From Nitrospirota bacterium (lineage in GTDB: Bacteria > Nitrospirota > Thermodesulfovibrionia > Thermodesulfovibrionales > JdFR-88), in contig JAKAHV010000002.1 in NCBI GenBank assembly GCA_021825295.1, positions 70,189 through 134,188 on the forward strand: a DNA stretch of 64,000 nt, written 5' to 3'. A program made the position numbers and the translations under genes. The notes below the pieces were generated by a model. That model was not told the origin of the DNA. It saw nothing but the letters and a program-made list of their open reading frames with translations, and made no database searches. Positions 14,995 through 48,282 of this stretch are shown here, one piece after another (position 1 is the first letter of the stretch; each line of letters starts with the position of its first letter).

Positions 14995-15214
14995 GGTGAT
15001 AGGAAATTTTAGAACCTCAAAAATAAAATTTTATTGTTTGCATTTCCCTTTGGAATTTGTTGAAAGGCCGTCATACCGGTCCCGCCGGGGCGGGATATCC
15101 AGTGACTTTGCCGTGGAGCCTTAACGTCACTGGATTCCGGATTACTAAATCTGGAATGACGGCTTAAAATTCAATAGATACCCTGCAACTTGCTGCAGGG
15201 TGATTCATTTCCTC

Positions 15215-15243: not shown

Positions 15244-15687
15244 GGAGTGGATTGCGCATCCCCAAAGTTTGACTTTTTCCCTTTTCGCATGCCCCGGGGG
15301 CATGCCCACAGTGCCTGCTGGTTTATGAATTTCTGTATGTTTTTCAATAGGCTTGAATATGTGATTTTCAGGGAGTTCTAACAGGATGCGGAAAAACTAT
15401 TTTCGAGCCTTTTATCCGTAATTCCCGCGAAGGCGGGAATCCAGGTTTTTCAATGACTTATATTTAAAGTGGATTCCAAGCCGGGGAATGACGAATTTGA
15501 GACTTTTTCAACAGCCTGCTAATCAATCGTCTTCATCGGGGAAAGGAGGTGGCTTAAAAAAGATAAAAAATCGGGGCCCTTTAAAAGTTTCACAGGGAGA
15601 AGCGGGGCCTGCCGGGGGCTTGCTGCCGGCGGGCATGGAGAAACAGCGGGGAAAAGGGCATATATCGATAAGGGAGGGTATTTATTG

Positions 15688-17336: not shown

Positions 17337-17590
17337 GGCAAAAGGCGGATGGGAACATGGCTCGCATCATTCTCGCCGGCCATCCCTGGCCGGCTCCGAG
17401 GCTTTTGCCTATCCGGACGTCCATGTCCGGATTACGGCAAAAAAATCCGCTCCCATGCCCCCATCCGCCTTTTGCCTTACACGCGATTCGCTTATACCCG
17501 GTCGTTGGAGGAGTCGCCGGACGGAAAAAAAGGATTGAGAGATCCCGCCAAGGCGGGACAGCGGCAGAAAAAAAGCAGCAAAAAAAGAAA
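17337..17590. repeat. Repeat family A, internal-module copy (no TIRs)
   Basis: It shares ggcaaaaggcggatgggaacatggctcgcatc...atccgccttttgccttacacgcgattcgcttataccc and gcggcagaaaaaaagc with 43820-44070, and carries an extra insertion in the hairpin. Confidence 0.5.
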
Positions 17591-45067: not shown

Positions 45068-47115
45068 AAGAGCTTCTCTTTGAGATAGGGGTGGAGGAAA
45101 TCCCCGCAAGATTTCTGCCGGGGGCGATGGAAAATCTGAAGTCCTCCGCCAAAAGGCGCTTCGAGGAAAACGGGCTTTCATTTTCCTCGATCGATGTCTT
45201 TGCCACCCCGAGGCGTCTTGCCCTGATGGTTCAGGGCCTGCCCGAAAGGCAGCCCGACAGGGTCAGGATGGTCTTCGGCCCTCCGAAAAAGATCGCCTTC
45301 GACAGGGATGGAAAGGCGACCAGGGCGCTTACCGGTTTTGCGGATTCGCTGGGCGTAAGGCCGGAGGACCTTGTGGAGAAGGAGAAAAACTCCGGGCTTT
45401 ACATGGCGGCCCTCATCCAGGAGAAAGGCAGCCCGCTGAAGGACGTCCTGCCTGGTATGCTGAAAGAGATACTGCTTTCGCTTGGCTTCCCTAAATCAAT
45501 GAGGTGGGGCGAAGGGAGCCTGAGGTTTGTAAGGCCCGTAAGGTGGCTGACCGCGCTTCTGGGCTCCGAGATACTGGGATTTGAGATTGACGGAATAAAG
45601 AGCGGAAACATAAGCAGGGGCCACAGGTTCCTCTCGTCGGGCGCCTTCCAGTTGAGGGAGGCGAAGTCGTACGAAAGCGTCATGAAATCAAGTTTCGTGA
45701 TAGTAAATCCGGCCGTAAGGCGGGAGATCATCATGGGGGAGCTTGAGCGGCTTGCCGCAACCGCGGGCGGCAGGCCCGTCCTGGACCCCGGCCTCCTGGA
45801 TACGGTCATAAACCTGGTCGAATATCCCGTCGGCATGCTCTGCGAATTCCCGAAAGAGTACCTAGAGCTTCCGGAAGAGCTCCTTGTGACGGTGATGCAG
45901 GACCATCAGAAATATTTCGCCGTGAAGGATGAAAAAGACAGGCTCCTCAATTATTTCATAGTCATCGCCAACACGCTCAGGGAAAACTACTTCATGGTAA
46001 AGGCGGGCTCTGAAAGGGTGATAAGGGCGCGTTTCGAAGACGCAAGGTTCTATTACCATGAGGACCAGAACCGCTCGCTCCGGCAGCGGGTGGATGAGCT
46101 GAGGAAAGTGGCATTCCATGAGCGGCTTGGCAGCCTTGAGGACAAGGTCAGGCGCATGGAAAGCCTTGCCGTCCATATTGCCGGGGCTGTTTGCCCGGGA
46201 TCGGTCGAGCTGGCAAGGCAGGCCGCGCTCATCTCAAAGAGCGACCTGGTTACCGGCGTTGTAAGGGAGTTTCCAGAGCTTCAGGGAATAATGGGCAGAT
46301 ACTACGCCTTAAACGACGGGGAGCCGGAAGAAGTGGCCCAGGCCATCCTGGAGCAATACCTCCCAAGGCACATGGGCGACAGCCTCCCGTCAACGGACAT
46401 AGGCGCGGTCCTGGCGCTGGCGGACAGGCTGGACAATATCGCCTCTTTCTTCCACCTCGGGCTTGCACCGACCGGCTCGGAAGACCCATTCGCCCTGAGG
46501 AGGCAGACCATCGCCTGCGCCCAGATCCTTATTGAGGGGGGCTTCGAACTCGCGATTGAAGAGCTTGCCGGGGTGGCGGTGCGCGGGCTCAAGGCAGCAG
46601 ATGCGCTTAAAACGGAGATAATGCGCTTTTTCGAATCCAGGCTGCCCCAGATATTCGAGGCGAGGGGTTTTGAAAGCGATTTGACGGACTGCCTGCTTCC
46701 CTTGTCATCCGGGTTGCCCCTGAAGTATGTCCTTGAAAGGGGCAACGAATTGAAACGGTTCCGGCAGTCTCCATCCTGGGGCCCCTTTTTGGCCGCCATA
46801 AAAAGGGTAAAAAATATCCTTCCAAAGGACAAAAAGCTGGCGCCTGTCGACAGCGGCCTCTTCAGGGAGCCCGCTGAAAGGGAATTGTTTGAGAAGCTGT
46901 CCGCCCTTGAGGCATCACTTGGCGTCCTTTTGCCGGAACGCAGCTATGAGAAGGCGCTCCGGGGCCTCTCCGGCTTGACCGAAACGGTAAACGCTTTTTT
47001 TGATGCCGTGCTCATAATGGACAAGGACGAACGCATAAGGGAGAACAGGCTCTCTCTTCTTGGCGGCATATGGGGGCTTGCGCGCAAATTCTGCGACTTT
47101 TCAAGGCTCTCCTAG
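45064..47115 (+). CDS. glyS: Glycyl-tRNA synthetase beta subunit
   Basis: [18 protein letters not shown]-terminus; 683 aa; overlaps glyQ by 4 nt. Confidence 0.92.
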
Positions 47116-47138
47116 CGGCTTGATTCGAGAATAATTGT

Positions 47139-47168
47139 TTGACAAGGCCGCGGTTTTTTTGATATAAA
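47139..47168 (+). promoter_or_regulatory. Sigma-70 promoter candidate for tRNA-Asn
   Basis: TTGACA-N18-TATAAA ends 10 nt before the tRNA 5' end. Confidence 0.55.
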
Positions 47169-47178
47169 ATATAGATGT

Positions 47179-47251
47179 TCCTGGGTAGCTCAGCCGGCAG
47201 AGCGGGTGGCTGTTAACCACTTGGTCGGGGGTTCGAGTCCCTCCCCAGGAG
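47179..47251 (+). tRNA. tRNA-Asn (anticodon GTT)
   Basis: Cloverleaf folded by hand: acceptor tcctggg/cccagga, D arm gctc-agccggca-gagc, anticodon arm ggtgg-ctGTTaa-ccact, T arm ggggg-ttcgagt-ccctc, discriminator g. Confidence 0.9.
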
Positions 47252-47272
47252 CTTACAAACCTGAGCAAGAAA

Positions 47273-47551
47273 ATGCCTTTCTATGCGTATATCTTACAAA
47301 GCGAATCCTCGGGCGGTTATTATTGCGGATCAACTTCTGATATAGCCAGAAGGATTCAGCAGCATAACGACTCCAAATATAAGCTCACTTTGACTACGAA
47401 GCGTTTTCCTGGCCCCTGGAAGTTGATCTATTGCGAAGAACATTGCGATAGAAAGTCGGCTATGAAACGTGAAAAATACATCAAAGCAAGAGGTATTAGC
47501 CGTTTCCTGGCTGAATTTCAGCCGGCAGAGTCCCGCCCGAGGCGGGATTAA
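47273..47551 (+). CDS. Small stand-alone GIY-YIG nuclease-domain protein, copy 1
   Basis: FYAYILQSESSGGYYCGSTSDIARRIQQHN...KREKYIK fits the GIY...YIG...R...E pattern of YhbQ-like GIY-YIG proteins of 90-100 aa. The last 17 codons or so are read from tRNA-like DNA. Confidence 0.75.
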   Translation: MPFYAYILQSESSGGYYCGSTSDIARRIQQHNDSKYKLTLTTKRFPGPWKLIYCEEHCDRKSAMKREKYIKARGISRFLAEFQPAESRPRRD

Positions 47552-47586
47552 CCACTTGGTCGGGGGTTCGAGTCCCTCCCCAGGAG
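47505..47586 (+). other. tRNA-Asn-derived tRNA-like element 1 (acceptor and T arms kept, anticodon arm replaced by a GC hairpin)
   Basis: tcctggc...tcagccggcagag-tcccgcc cga ggcggga-tt-aaccacttggtcgggggttcgagtccctccccaggag. 37 nt at the 3' end and 13 nt of the D loop are identical to the tRNA. The D stem is destroyed and there is no anticodon loop. Confidence 0.7.
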
Positions 47587-47607
47587 CTTACAAACCTGAG
47601 CAAGAAA

Positions 47608-47886
47608 ATGCCTTTCTATGCGTATATCTTACAAAGCGAATCCTCGGGCGGTTATTATTGCGGATCAACTTCTGATATAGCCAGAAGGATTCAGCAGCAT
47701 AACGACTCCAAATATAAGCTCACTTTGACTACGAAGCGTTTTCCTGGCCCCTGGAAGTTGATCTATTGCGAAGAACATTGCGATAGAAAGTCGGCTATGA
47801 AACGTGAAAAATACATCAAAGCAAGAGGTATTAGCCGTTTCCTGGCTGAATTTCAGCCGGCAGAGTCCCGCCCGAGGCGGGATTAA
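47608..47886 (+). CDS. Small stand-alone GIY-YIG nuclease-domain protein, copy 2 (identical)
   Basis: Identical 92-aa translation to 47273-47551. Confidence 0.75.
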   Translation: MPFYAYILQSESSGGYYCGSTSDIARRIQQHNDSKYKLTLTTKRFPGPWKLIYCEEHCDRKSAMKREKYIKARGISRFLAEFQPAESRPRRD

Positions 47887-47921
47887 CCACTTGGTCGGGG
47901 GTTCGAGTCCCTCCCCAGGAG
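47840..47921 (+). other. tRNA-Asn-derived tRNA-like element 2
   Basis: Same sequence as 47505-47586, followed by a different flank (gttttcctctc). Confidence 0.7.
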
Positions 47922-47950
47922 TTTTCCTCTCTTGACTTTCAATTTCGGCT

Positions 47951-48171
47951 CTACCGGGTTTTCTGTGGGTATTTCCCCCTCCCTTGAGGGGGGGGGATGA
48001 AGGGGAGGGTGTTCTATGCTTCTGCAGCCGGTTCAGTATGTTGACCGCCGTCCAGCTCGATTACAATCTTCTTTGAGAGGAGATAACAGCCTTCCCCGCC
48101 CTCTCAACCCTGTGCCCCTGCCATCTTCCTCAGGAAAAACTATTTTAACCCATACTAAACCCTGAAGAGCC
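47951..48171 (-). repeat. Repeat family D copy 3 (ends conserved, middle replaced)
   Basis: It shares ctaccgggttttctgtgggtat..ccctcccttgaggg and gagataacagccttccccgccctctcaaccctgtgcccctgccatcttcctcagg...gaagagcc with 37934-38195. Confidence 0.6.
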
Positions 48172-48282
48172 TCAATTTCAATTTCCTGGGTGTCCGGTTT
48201 CGTTTCCTTTTCGCATGTACCCGAAGCGGCAGCCTCTTTTTTGTTATAATCCTCACCTGATGAGAGCGTTTCTGGTGCCGGG

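Follow-up and report, generated by a model that had tools for sequence, protein, structure and literature searches.

A tRNA-Asn-derived element pair in a Nitrospirota genome as the probable scaffold of a small GIY-YIG nuclease and hairpin cassette

Downstream of the tRNA-Asn gene of this Nitrospirota genome lie two identical tRNA-like elements, each of them overlapping the end of an open reading frame for a predicted small nuclease, and the question is what such elements could be doing there. A sequence-only reading of the locus had described them as degenerate tRNA copies that exactly retain an acceptor/T-arm minihelix, either as a signal for RNase P and RNase Z or, as a fallback, as a nuclease or recombination site. 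The present analysis suggests that the elements are probably the tRNA-derived scaffold of a nuclease/hairpin cassette resident at tRNA-Asn, and not decayed tRNAs kept for RNA processing. The coordinates below are positions in the window, which is the whole stretch of 64,000 nucleotides analysed, and every feature given lies on its forward (+) strand.

The intact tRNA-Asn(GTT) gene (47179..47251; ARAGORN; Rfam RF00005, 65.1 bits) is the only tRNA-Asn gene that ARAGORN finds in the whole genome assembly. It begins 10 nt after the end of a promoter-like TTGACA-N18-TATAAA read from the sequence at 47139..47168, which was missed by the simple promoter scan because the scan accepts only a -10 hexamer that ends in T. 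Repeat search revealed that the 3' part of the gene opens a 335-bp unit (47213..47547), which is followed by a second, identical unit (47548..47882; 100% identity, 335-bp spacing). The first unit consists, in this order, of tRNA positions 35-73, a 21-nt spacer (20 nt if the tRNA end of ARAGORN, 47252, is taken), an ORF, a segment derived from the D-loop and a hairpin. A third, terminal copy of tRNA positions 35-73 (47883..47921; sequence reading and repeat search) closes the array, which stops just past the discriminator (ccaggag, then ttt). The count of two perfect 335-bp units is that of the assembly, and the bin may come from short reads. After the array, a terminator scan gives a weak terminator-like hairpin with a T-run (47944..47958). 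Between the tRNA-Asn gene and the ORFs the simple scan detected neither promoter-like nor terminator-like sites, as the sequence-only reading had said of terminators, and since a spacer of 20 nt holds neither, it is plausible from the sequence that the ORFs are co-transcribed with tRNA-Asn. The ORFs have a GC content of 0.42-0.48, lower than the 0.54-0.63 of the flanks.

The two ORFs (47273..47551, from ORF listing and Pfam; 47608..47886, from ORF listing and sequence comparison) are identical, and each is predicted to encode a single-domain GIY-YIG nuclease of 92 aa. Pfam PF01541 matches residues 3-71 of the protein with an E-value of 4.9e-16, without a second domain, and Y6, Y17, R27, H31, N32 and E67 are invariant among 29 homologs. 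The AlphaFold2 model (mean pLDDT 83.7) has a GIY-YIG fold over residues 1-82. Its nearest folds are UPF0213/BH0048 and Slx1 (Foldseek E 1.4e-4 to 3e-2), with I-TevI farther away (E 0.68), and the tail encoded by the hairpin, residues 83-92, is predicted to be disordered. It was found that the protein is 33% identical, end to end, to the GIY-YIG protein of a relative of the same order (G026), whose gene has canonical NTS-type hairpins in its flanks. In sequence and in fold the ORF is equally near to UPF0213/Slx1 and to this canonical hairpin-flanked type, UPF0213 structures giving similar E-values. PHROGs and PADLOC gave no match to the ORF, and the only NCBIfam hit was a group I intron endonuclease below threshold (16 bits against a 56-bit cut-off). 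The 335-bp unit codes for this ORF alone, and a recombinase or integrase gene is absent from it. On the choice between transfer and vertical descent with repeated loss, the protein tree is poorly resolved (78 columns, with only 4 of 66 inner branches well supported) and offers at most hints, one being the position of a Gemmatimonadota row within its Desulfobulbaceae/Syntrophaceae group.

The tRNA-Asn-like elements (47505..47586 and, by sequence reading, 47840..47921) are identical and stand exactly where they had been placed. The first takes in the final 15 codons of ORF 1 together with its stop and reads tcctggc / tgaatt / tcagccggcagag / tcccgcc-cga-ggcggga / ttaacc...ccaggag. Several details of the sequence-only reading were borne out: tcctggc could form 6/7 acceptor pairs with cccagga; the tRNA-Asn at 47179-47251 has the same T arm, 3' acceptor strand and discriminator; the D stem is altered (gc to tt at positions 10-11); and a perfect 7-bp GC hairpin stands in the place of tRNA positions 25-34. 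The stop codon TAA of ORF 1 (47549-47551) is T36-A37-A38 of the Asn anticodon loop. What did not survive is the description of degenerate copies with an exactly retained minihelix. The copies lie in a 100% repeat without decay, an acceptor stem is absent from both the RNA MFE fold (-39.6 kcal/mol) and the centroid fold, and the Rfam tRNA model RF00005 gives no match on 47505-47586 or 47840-47921 even at E<=10. In the MFE fold the 5' strand of the element is taken into a local hairpin, CUGGCUGA-AUU-UCAGCCGG, from the palindrome ctggctga-att-tcagccgg (47507..47525), which ties up the would-be 5' acceptor strand and was not seen in the related loci compared. That strand is also codons F78-L79-A80 of the ORF, within a conserved RFL motif; at the corresponding place in related loci a median of 4/7 positions agree with the host acceptor, a degree of match for which the TTC CTN codons of RFL account. 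The stretch from position 35 to the 3' end is inside the 100%-identical 335-bp repeat, so that its intactness reflects a very recent duplication and not selection against decay; the intact T arm and 3' acceptor are here part of the youngest repeat. Two other candidates were rejected: a second functional tRNA, since at this locus ARAGORN and the Rfam model find the intact tRNA-Asn only and neither element, and an intron-like insertion in the anticodon loop, since the upstream tRNA-Asn is uninterrupted.

The hairpin shows a different picture. It occupies 47529..47549 as ag/tcccgcc-cga-ggcggga/tt, in place of tRNA positions 25-34, and a pattern search finds it again in unit 2 at 47864..47884. Its stem is perfect over 7 bp and reaches 9 bp when an A-T and a G.T pair at the foot are included. 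Alignment of further copies, which the sequence-only reading had proposed as a check, gave covariation in this stem: across 61 hairpin copies 98.4% of the cells are paired and compensatory changes occur in 4 of 9 pairs, while none of 500 shuffles scored as high. The outer stem TCCCG/CGGGA and the flanks are kept in sequence too, beyond pairing. The hairpin is found at 21 ORF ends whose stop comes before or inside it; it is conserved as a structure, translated or not. A terminator role was rejected because no T-run follows it. Recurrence of the hairpin in other repeats, which had also been pointed out earlier, is well above expectation, with 5 matches to the pattern in the window against 0.05 expected and 84 genome-wide against 14 for a reversed-pattern control, and its core occurs in some 80 other genomic places within unrelated repeats. 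Relatives without the ORF clade also have tens of hairpins (50 in G001, 54 in G005), and therefore the genome-wide hairpins need not depend on the ORF.

About 80 related loci from many phyla were compared. tRNA-Asn(GTT) is present in 52 of 71, usually 40-130 nt upstream and on the same strand. The left junction falls at tRNA position 24 in 58/71 cases and the right junction at position 35 in 60/78; the design of ORF, hairpin and tRNA copy with the same two junctions, after 24 and before 35, recurs across many phyla. Among the 51 loci with a same-strand tRNA-Asn the hairpin is kept in 36, and the T arm with the 3' acceptor in 10. When 49 distinct hairpin-bearing tRNA-Asn copies were mapped on the host tRNA, the 5' acceptor was retained in 17, the 3' end in 13 and both in none. 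One further full-length hairpin-bearing copy, outside the 49, occurs in L037. Copies joined to an ORF begin at tRNA position 9-12, and ORF-less copies stop near position 48, without a T arm. As many as 30 of the 49 modules have no adjoining ORF, 25 of those being upstream of an intact tRNA. The T arm is often exchanged for a second hairpin in related loci: in a sister lineage with the same D-loop, ORF-linked and downstream copies carry a second hairpin in place of the T arm, and the upstream ORF-less copies have no T arm. If any part looks like a recognition element, it is the hairpin and the sequence directly beside it (tRNA positions 10-24 and 35-48) and not the helix of acceptor and T arm. 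The fallback idea of a nuclease or recombination site pointed in the right direction.

Linkage was surveyed in 201 genomes of the same order. The hairpin module was present in 13 of the 14 genomes with the clade ORF (E<=1e-25) compared to 3 of the 187 without it, the controls gave 0 hits, and in the 12 cases read from coordinates the module lies within about 300 nt of the ORF. The ORF and the hairpin module travel together. The cassette was not found in the same-genus G002 nor in family relatives, where glyS and tRNA-Asn are followed after 55-125 nt by the next gene; it is an insertion beside the sole tRNA-Asn gene. The 5 nt CTTAC after the tRNA are common to the locus and the empty site of G002, a stretch too short to decide whether the insert starts after the tRNA or in the anticodon loop. 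More distant relatives lie between tRNA-Ala and a 5'-truncated tRNA-Ala copy, without the hairpin. Tandem arrays were seen elsewhere too, with five copies in L022 (on a 5-Mb contig), four in L053 and two each in L051, L062 and L075, and G024 has at least three hairpin modules with one scored ORF on a single contig. In metagenome contigs the exact tRNA/spacer/ORF junction pattern gave 0 matches, and the D-loop/hairpin junction pattern found the sister clade only. Comparison of two cassettes on one Hydrogenedentota contig (L063/L064) gave no readable boundary of a mobile unit, because the second site also begins with a tRNA remnant.

These observations have to be weighed against readings in which the elements act in RNA. 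In one of them the acceptor/T-arm minihelix would be recognised by RNase P and RNase Z, whose cuts would free the nuclease mRNAs from a read-through transcript begun at the tRNA promoter. The gap of just 20 nt from tRNA to ORF, free of promoter-like and terminator-like sites, would suit such punctuation, as would the intact T arm, 3' acceptor and discriminator of both copies with 6/7 acceptor pairs possible, and cutting at the 3' border (47586) would part the two ORF messages neatly. However, no acceptor stem forms in the MFE fold, neither element is hit by the tRNA covariance model at E<=10, and RNase P acting at 47505 would break the ORF at codon 78 of 92, leaving a non-stop mRNA which has lost its stop codon. 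A processing site is, moreover, already supplied by the intact upstream tRNA. The arm-specific pattern is absent from other copies: the 5' acceptor is not kept in ORF-linked copies beyond the median 4/7 of the RFL codons, the T arm and 3' acceptor persist in 10/51 loci, both acceptor strands in 0/49 copies, and a second hairpin often replaces the T arm. We consider this reading very improbable. Another RNA-level role, in which the hairpin would stabilise the 3' end of the nuclease mRNA in the manner of REP elements or act on its translation, with the tRNA flanks as by-products of insertion, is rather unlikely. In its favour, bacterial mRNAs are known to gain protection from GC hairpins at their 3' ends, as with REP elements; the stop codon of nearly every family member lies at or within the hairpin, and compensatory changes in the stem fit RNA equally. 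Such a role does not explain why 30/49 modules adjoin no ORF, 25 of them upstream of an intact tRNA, nor why the core is at some 80 other genome sites in unrelated repeats. The sequence conservation of TCCCG/CGGGA and the flanks mirrors the sequence-specific recognition of Ssn.

A third possibility places the event in DNA but dispenses with hairpin recognition. The tRNA copies would be attL/attR duplicates left by an integrase, or a double-strand homing endonuclease would cut tRNA-Asn and the hairpin would destroy the spare site. In favour of this, integration into tRNA genes classically leaves an intact tRNA and, behind it, a direct repeat that runs from the anticodon loop to the 3' end. The cassette was also not detected in close relatives, and distant relatives are flanked by tRNA-Ala and a 5'-truncated tRNA-Ala copy with no hairpin. 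Yet there is no integrase, the 335-bp unit making a 92-aa protein only, and this protein is without the DNA-binding domain that known GIY-YIG homing enzymes have and is nearest in fold to the structure-specific Slx1/UPF0213 group and not to I-TevI. The supposed target is left intact in the functional neighbouring tRNA, and mere destruction of a site needs neither hairpin covariation nor duplication of the hairpin into other arms. An explanation of this kind is unlikely.

The reading that we prefer is that of a small, probably selfish cassette, whose ORF has its last codons and stop read from a tRNA-Asn copy with the hairpin for positions 25-34. If it works as the Ssn family does (Chenal et al. 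2025), the nuclease would bind the hairpin in single-stranded DNA, as at replication, in a transcription bubble or in incoming DNA, and would nick a few bases 5' of it, in the flank derived from the D arm. The anatomy of the locus suggests the rest: the intact tRNA and the partial copies form direct repeats, and break repair or unequal recombination between them could shift the copy number, giving the perfect tandem of 2 x 335 bp here and arrays of 2-5 copies elsewhere. The same tRNA repeats may admit the cassette to the conserved tRNA-Asn gene of a new host with the intact tRNA kept. Insertion is beyond what a hydrolytic nuclease alone can explain, and here we infer a recombination route. More tentatively, the cassette may be an autonomous mobile element of an undescribed kind, in which an ssDNA hairpin-specific GIY-YIG enzyme is combined with its hairpin in a duplicated piece of a tRNA gene that is essential and universally conserved; the tRNA would then serve as portable homology for cross-phylum entry and tandem amplification, always leaving one working tRNA. 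This possibility is rather doubtful at present.

Punctuation of RNA would have meant a new role for tRNA remnants in bacteria, and the comparative evidence is against it. What remains of interest is a branch of hairpin-associated mini GIY-YIG enzymes linked in many phyla to a single tRNA gene, with junctions exact to the base and units amplified in tandem; tRNA is not mentioned in the one paper characterising the Ssn enzyme family (Chenal et al. 2025, PMC11893778). If the nuclease acts on the ssDNA hairpin, the cassette would be a simple natural system for the spread of Ssn-type enzymes and repeats, a question left by that paper (PMC11893778). It would also be a case of a selfish element occupying an essential single-copy gene without killing it, and the family could be a source of new ssDNA nucleases that are sequence-specific and have defined sites.

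The locus can be compared with several known systems. tRNA punctuation, familiar from the mitochondrial punctuation model and from bacterial tRNA-mRNA co-transcripts such as the tufB operon, shares with it a tRNA directly upstream of an ORF without a terminator, and here also an intact T arm and 3' acceptor; the cassette differs in that its elements have no predicted acceptor stem or covariance-model match, their 5' border is inside the ORF, and the family as a whole does not conserve the acceptor/T-arm pair. Elements that integrate into tRNA genes, which Williams reportedly classified in 2002 and whose attL/attR duplicate the 3' part of the gene, likewise show an intact tRNA with a displaced partial copy from the anticodon loop, and they too are patchily distributed and not found in close relatives, whereas the cassette is 335 bp long, has no integrase, forms tandem arrays and has its junction marked by a conserved hairpin. 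Free-standing GIY-YIG homing endonucleases (phage Seg proteins, I-TevI) are similar as selfish-looking genes beside a highly conserved gene. Unlike them, the cassette protein has no DNA-binding domain and a fold nearer to Slx1/UPF0213, and its target gene is regenerated intact. In REP/BIME with RAYT (TnpA-REP) and in IS200/IS605, to which Chenal et al. liken Ssn (PMC11893778), a small enzyme gene is again accompanied by genome-wide GC hairpins recognised as ssDNA. Covalent strand transfer is, however, not to be expected of the cassette enzyme, which is a predicted hydrolytic GIY-YIG and no tyrosine transposase of the HUH type.

Ssn is the remaining system. Ssn proteins, among them SsnA of Neisseria meningitidis, consist of one GIY-YIG domain and are ~94 aa long, the active site being formed by Y6, Y17 and E64 (SsnA numbering). 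They leave dsDNA and RNA uncut and cleave ssDNA on the 5' side of a hairpin with the core TTCCCGCG..GCGGGAA; the cognate hairpins adjoin the gene and have many genomic copies (Chenal et al. 2025, PMC11893778). The flanks of the hairpin are different: those of the cassette are tRNA-Asn (..GGYAGAG, TTAACC..) and those of Ssn CGTCAT and ATCYRG. The published SRM search sequence, HGTCWYN(0-2)YYVSBRHN(0-5)WNVSBRGN(0-2)RNCYNB, had 0 matches on either strand of 47100-48000, the palindrome core alone being in common; it covers 1/84 of the genomic hairpins and shows hardly any genome-wide excess over its reversed control (43 against 24). In addition, the cassette gene keeps to a single tRNA gene, a copy of which it overlaps, and its protein is 32-33% identical to the canonical hairpin-flanked type. 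The likeness lies in the protein, with its one GIY-YIG domain, its length of about 92-94 aa and its Tyr6, Tyr17 and Glu around position 64-67 (residues matched to the positions named in PMC11893778, not to an SsnA sequence), in a GC hairpin core TCCCGC/GCGGGA directly by the gene, in tens of genomic hairpin copies within mosaic repeats and, in many related loci, in hairpins on both sides of the gene. Ssn is the closest known system, and it is by this analogy that the cassette can be likened to the Ssn family.

The cassette, a 92-aa GIY-YIG nuclease ORF with a hairpin and a partial tRNA-Asn copy, occupies a fixed position within a single tRNA gene. glyQ and glyS lie 5' of a promoter-like site (TTGACA-N18-TATAAA, 47139-47168) and of an intact tRNA-Asn(GTT) at 47179-47251, the single tRNA-Asn found in the 2.89-Mb assembly. 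ORF 1 (92 codons, 47273-47551) follows after a spacer of 21 nt, or 20 nt with ARAGORN's tRNA end (47252), and ORF 2 (47608-47886) is the same as ORF 1; the product is one GIY-YIG domain (PF01541, E 4.9e-16). A repeat search revealed a 335-bp unit in two copies of 100% identity (47213-47547 and 47548-47882), a count which is uncertain, the source possibly being a short-read bin; its first 39 bases are present once more at 47883-47921. The first base of the unit is tRNA position 35 (TTAACC...), and the last base of the array is the discriminator. Between the cassette and a PIG-L-like gene lies another repeat (47951-48171), with two modules (47943-48074 and 48075-48178), which is present on many contigs of the same genome and also in relatives.

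It had been proposed in the sequence-only reading that the tRNA-Asn-like elements at 47505-47586 and 47840-47921 retain exactly a minihelix of acceptor and T arm, as a processing signal would. As a description of 47505-47586 that reading is correct to the base: tcctggc and cccagga can pair at 6/7 positions, the T arm is the same as in tRNA-Asn, as are the 3' acceptor strand and the discriminator, D-stem positions 10-11 are altered, and tRNA positions 25-34 are exchanged for tcccgcc-cga-ggcggga. The claim of exact retention is undercut by the perfect repeat, by codons which the protein imposes, by a fold lacking the acceptor stem and by a null result with the tRNA model. The perfect repeat takes in everything from tRNA position 35 on, spacer and ORF included, so no decay has happened there and the arms were not "spared". 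The "5' acceptor strand" of the element consists of ORF codons F78-L79-A80; throughout the ORF family R77 is invariant and is followed by F/Y-L, therefore TTC CTN is imposed by the protein. The predicted RNA fold of the element (-39.6 kcal/mol) has three local hairpins and no acceptor stem, the 5' strand being held in CUGGCUGA-AUU-UCAGCCGG. The palindrome ctggctga-att-tcagccgg (47507-47525 and 47842-47860; 8 bp as RNA), a third local hairpin, is made by the bases disrupting the D stem together with the D-loop, and was not seen in related loci. The Rfam tRNA model gave no match to either copy at E<=10. Moreover, an RNase P cut at 47505 would hit codon 78, and the message would lose its stop codon. 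The absence of a visible terminator was borne out, as a sequence scan found neither a terminator-like nor a promoter-like site between the tRNA-Asn and the ORFs. Co-transcription of ORF and tRNA in the window is plausible, and with it the processing site would be the intact tRNA itself.

Arm-specific retention did not hold in further copies. In 49 distinct copies the hairpin occupies positions 25-34 and both flanks could be mapped (short-word BLAST, fixed thresholds); of these, 17 keep the 5' strand, 13 the 3' end and none both. The ORF-joined copies (n=19) lack the 5' acceptor strand because they start at tRNA position 6-14, mostly 9-12. The ORF-less copies (n=30), 25 of them upstream of an intact tRNA (22 loci), start mostly at position 1, and 28 of the 30 lack the T arm and 3' acceptor because they end around position 43-56. 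At the RFL position, 9 copies match the host 5' acceptor at 3/7, 27 at 4/7, 12 at 5/7 and 3 at 6/7, two of the last three being the window's own. At the ORF end of 51 other loci with a same-strand tRNA-Asn, the hairpin was found in 36, the TTAA and anticodon 3' strand in 30, the D-arm in 25 and the T arm in 12, 10 of them with the 3' acceptor as well. In related loci the lost T arm is often exchanged for a second hairpin of the same kind. A sister lineage on twelve metagenome contigs, with the same CAGCCGGCAGAG D-loop, shows this exchange in ORF-linked and downstream copies, and its ORF-less upstream copies are without the T arm altogether. An extra full-length copy (L037, 1874-1956) is a tRNA-Asn with only positions 25-34 exchanged for the hairpin, called tRNA-Phe(aaa) by ARAGORN; it lies upstream of its ORF, and downstream are the intact tRNA-Asn and two further partial copies. 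What the retention pattern marks as the conserved core is thus the D-arm with the hairpin and positions 35-48, the reverse of an acceptor/T-arm helix.

A protein search gave 44 relatives of the ORF at 48-66% identity. Many end in AQ(L/S)VESR(R/P)RRD, which is the translation of a tRNA D-arm (GCTCAGYYGGTAGAG) together with the TCCCGCC..GGCGGGAT TAA that comes after it. Scanning one genome per species gave 164 confirmed stretches, from which 80 loci were kept, several at contig ends, in Thermodesulfobacteriota, Hydrogenedentota, Acidobacteriota, Zixibacteria, Nitrospirota, Verrucomicrobiota, Gemmatimonadota and other phyla. A tRNA-Asn(GTT) is within the fetched stretch at 52 of 71 loci in which the ORF was found by motif search, usually 40-130 nt upstream on the same strand. 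When each host tRNA was mapped onto its own locus, 92 distinct hairpins abutted tRNA-derived sequence, with the left junction after position 24 in 58/71 and the right junction before position 35 in 60/78. At 35 of 74 distinct ORF ends, T36-A37-A38 of the Asn anticodon loop serves as the stop codon; 29 of these stops come after the hairpin (class 1), and in the other 6 (class 2) the native anticodon stem is translated and the ORF ends ..GGC*. Tandem arrays were found, five-fold in L022 (a 5-Mb contig), four-fold in L053 and two-fold in L051, L062 and L075, and one contig of genome G024 holds one scored ORF and three or more hairpin modules. A bacterial-looking cassette of typical form, with tRNA-Asn, occurs on a contig labelled Bathyarchaeia (L009), where the archaeal label is possibly a binning error. 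Two cassettes 25 kb apart on one Hydrogenedentota contig (L063/L064) have 450 bp in common at 99.3% identity, and a locus in a Nitrospiraceae bin, of another phylum (L073), is 93% identical over about 610 bp, by either transfer or mis-binning. In two related genomes (G013, G021) a more distant relative of the ORF adjoins tRNA-Ala(GGC); in the one read (L098, 76-525, of G013) the tRNA is on one side of it and, on the other, a tRNA-Ala copy truncated at its 5' end (positions 13-73), which has no hairpin and is translated whole (..IIQLGERLNGIQEVGGSIPLSST*).

The hairpin is structurally conserved. In an alignment of 61 distinct copies, picked by the 5' strand and downstream TTAA only, the stem covaries, with standard pairs in 98.4% of cells and two-sided changes in 4 of 9 pairs (27 cells); 0/500 shuffles matched these figures, and pairing falls to 22-54% in slid registers. 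Almost no variation is seen in the outer TCCCG/CGGGA or in the AG and TT beside it, and the inner pairs covary (CC/GG, CT/AG, CG/CG, AC/GT, AT/AT). At 21 ORF ends the hairpin is present with the stop lying before or inside it, and the hairpin-encoded residues 83-92 are predicted to be disordered (pLDDT 51-56 vs 90 or more for most of the fold). For these reasons the constraint acts on the nucleic acid, on its sequence as well as its pairing. The recurrence of the motif noticed earlier was confirmed (5 in the window vs 0.05 expected); genome-wide the pattern occurs 84 times, against 14 with the pattern reversed as a control, and its copies are found within several families of mosaic repeats. 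The hairpins TCCCGCC..GGCGGGA at 1031, 15080 and 17543 are within MITE-like repeats (938-1133, with inverted ends ttagaacctgtctcaaaat / attttgagccaggttctaa; about 15005-15130; about 17337-17590), whose mosaic families are found again on many of the genome's contigs.

The site is empty in kin. In G002, of the same genus (flanks 80-83% identical), and in five family relatives the order is glyS, tRNA-Asn, 55-125 nt and the PIG-L-like gene. As the sampled relatives lack the cassette and GC is 0.42-0.48 in the ORFs vs 0.54-0.63 around, the cassette was either acquired by the window's lineage or lost from every relative sampled. Its patchy occurrence among phyla speaks for gain, but the protein tree is too weak to prove this. 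By analogy with Ssn, the nuclease would most likely bind the hairpin specifically and nick single-stranded DNA. Replication or heavy tRNA transcription would open the DNA, the nicks would fall in the flank derived from the D-arm, and repair from the neighbouring tRNA repeat would cause units to be gained and lost. The nearly universal sequence of the tRNA repeats could let the cassette recombine into the tRNA-Asn gene of a new host. The partial copy is downstream of the intact tRNA in some arrangements and upstream in others, the outcome expected if crossing over took place to either side of the hairpin. The precise junctions may come from shared ancestry of the module, later homogenised to the host tRNA, and not from repeated site-specific insertion.

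The Ssn family (CDD cd10448; Chenal et al. 2025, PMC11893778) comprises GIY-YIG nucleases of about 94 aa with a single domain. Their target is a hairpin repeat (NTS, CGTCATTCCCGCGMAVGCGGGAATCYRG; SRM in the wider sense), which they bind as single-stranded DNA only, cutting a few nucleotides 5' of it, and they leave dsDNA and RNA untouched; the repeats flank the gene and are plentiful genome-wide (PMC11893778). The word tRNA is absent from that paper, and our literature search found no description of a tRNA-nested layout. The published SRM pattern does not match the window hairpin, and the ORF is, in sequence and predicted fold, about as close to UPF0213/BH0048 and the Slx1 nuclease domain as to the canonical hairpin-flanked type. 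The window's genome carries two near-canonical NTS copies; a near-canonical Neisseria-type NTS hairpin (ccgtaatTCCCGCGAAGGCGGGAatccagg) lies at about 15423-15438 of the window (C17:85611), and similar copies are on contigs C14 and C27. A paralog of the canonical hairpin-associated type (MKNFYIYIVTNETRTVLYTGITSNL...) lies on another contig (C63:38871-39101) with no such hairpin within 1.5 kb, and a truncated gene of this type at C5:16762-16872. Of 201 sampled genomes from the same order, 16 carry the tRNA-flanked hairpin module (controls 0), and these belong to 7 of 13 families; it is present in 13/14 genomes with the clade ORF (E<=1e-25) vs 3/187 without, and within about 300 nt of the ORF in 12 cases as read from coordinates, a linkage that is an association and not a statistic, related genomes not being independent. 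Some relatives without the clade ORF still have tens of such hairpins. In two relatives (G025, G026) canonical NTS-type hairpins adjoin GIY-YIG genes, one of which is 33% identical to the window ORF over the whole domain, and the palindrome core of NTS is the same as that of the window hairpin.
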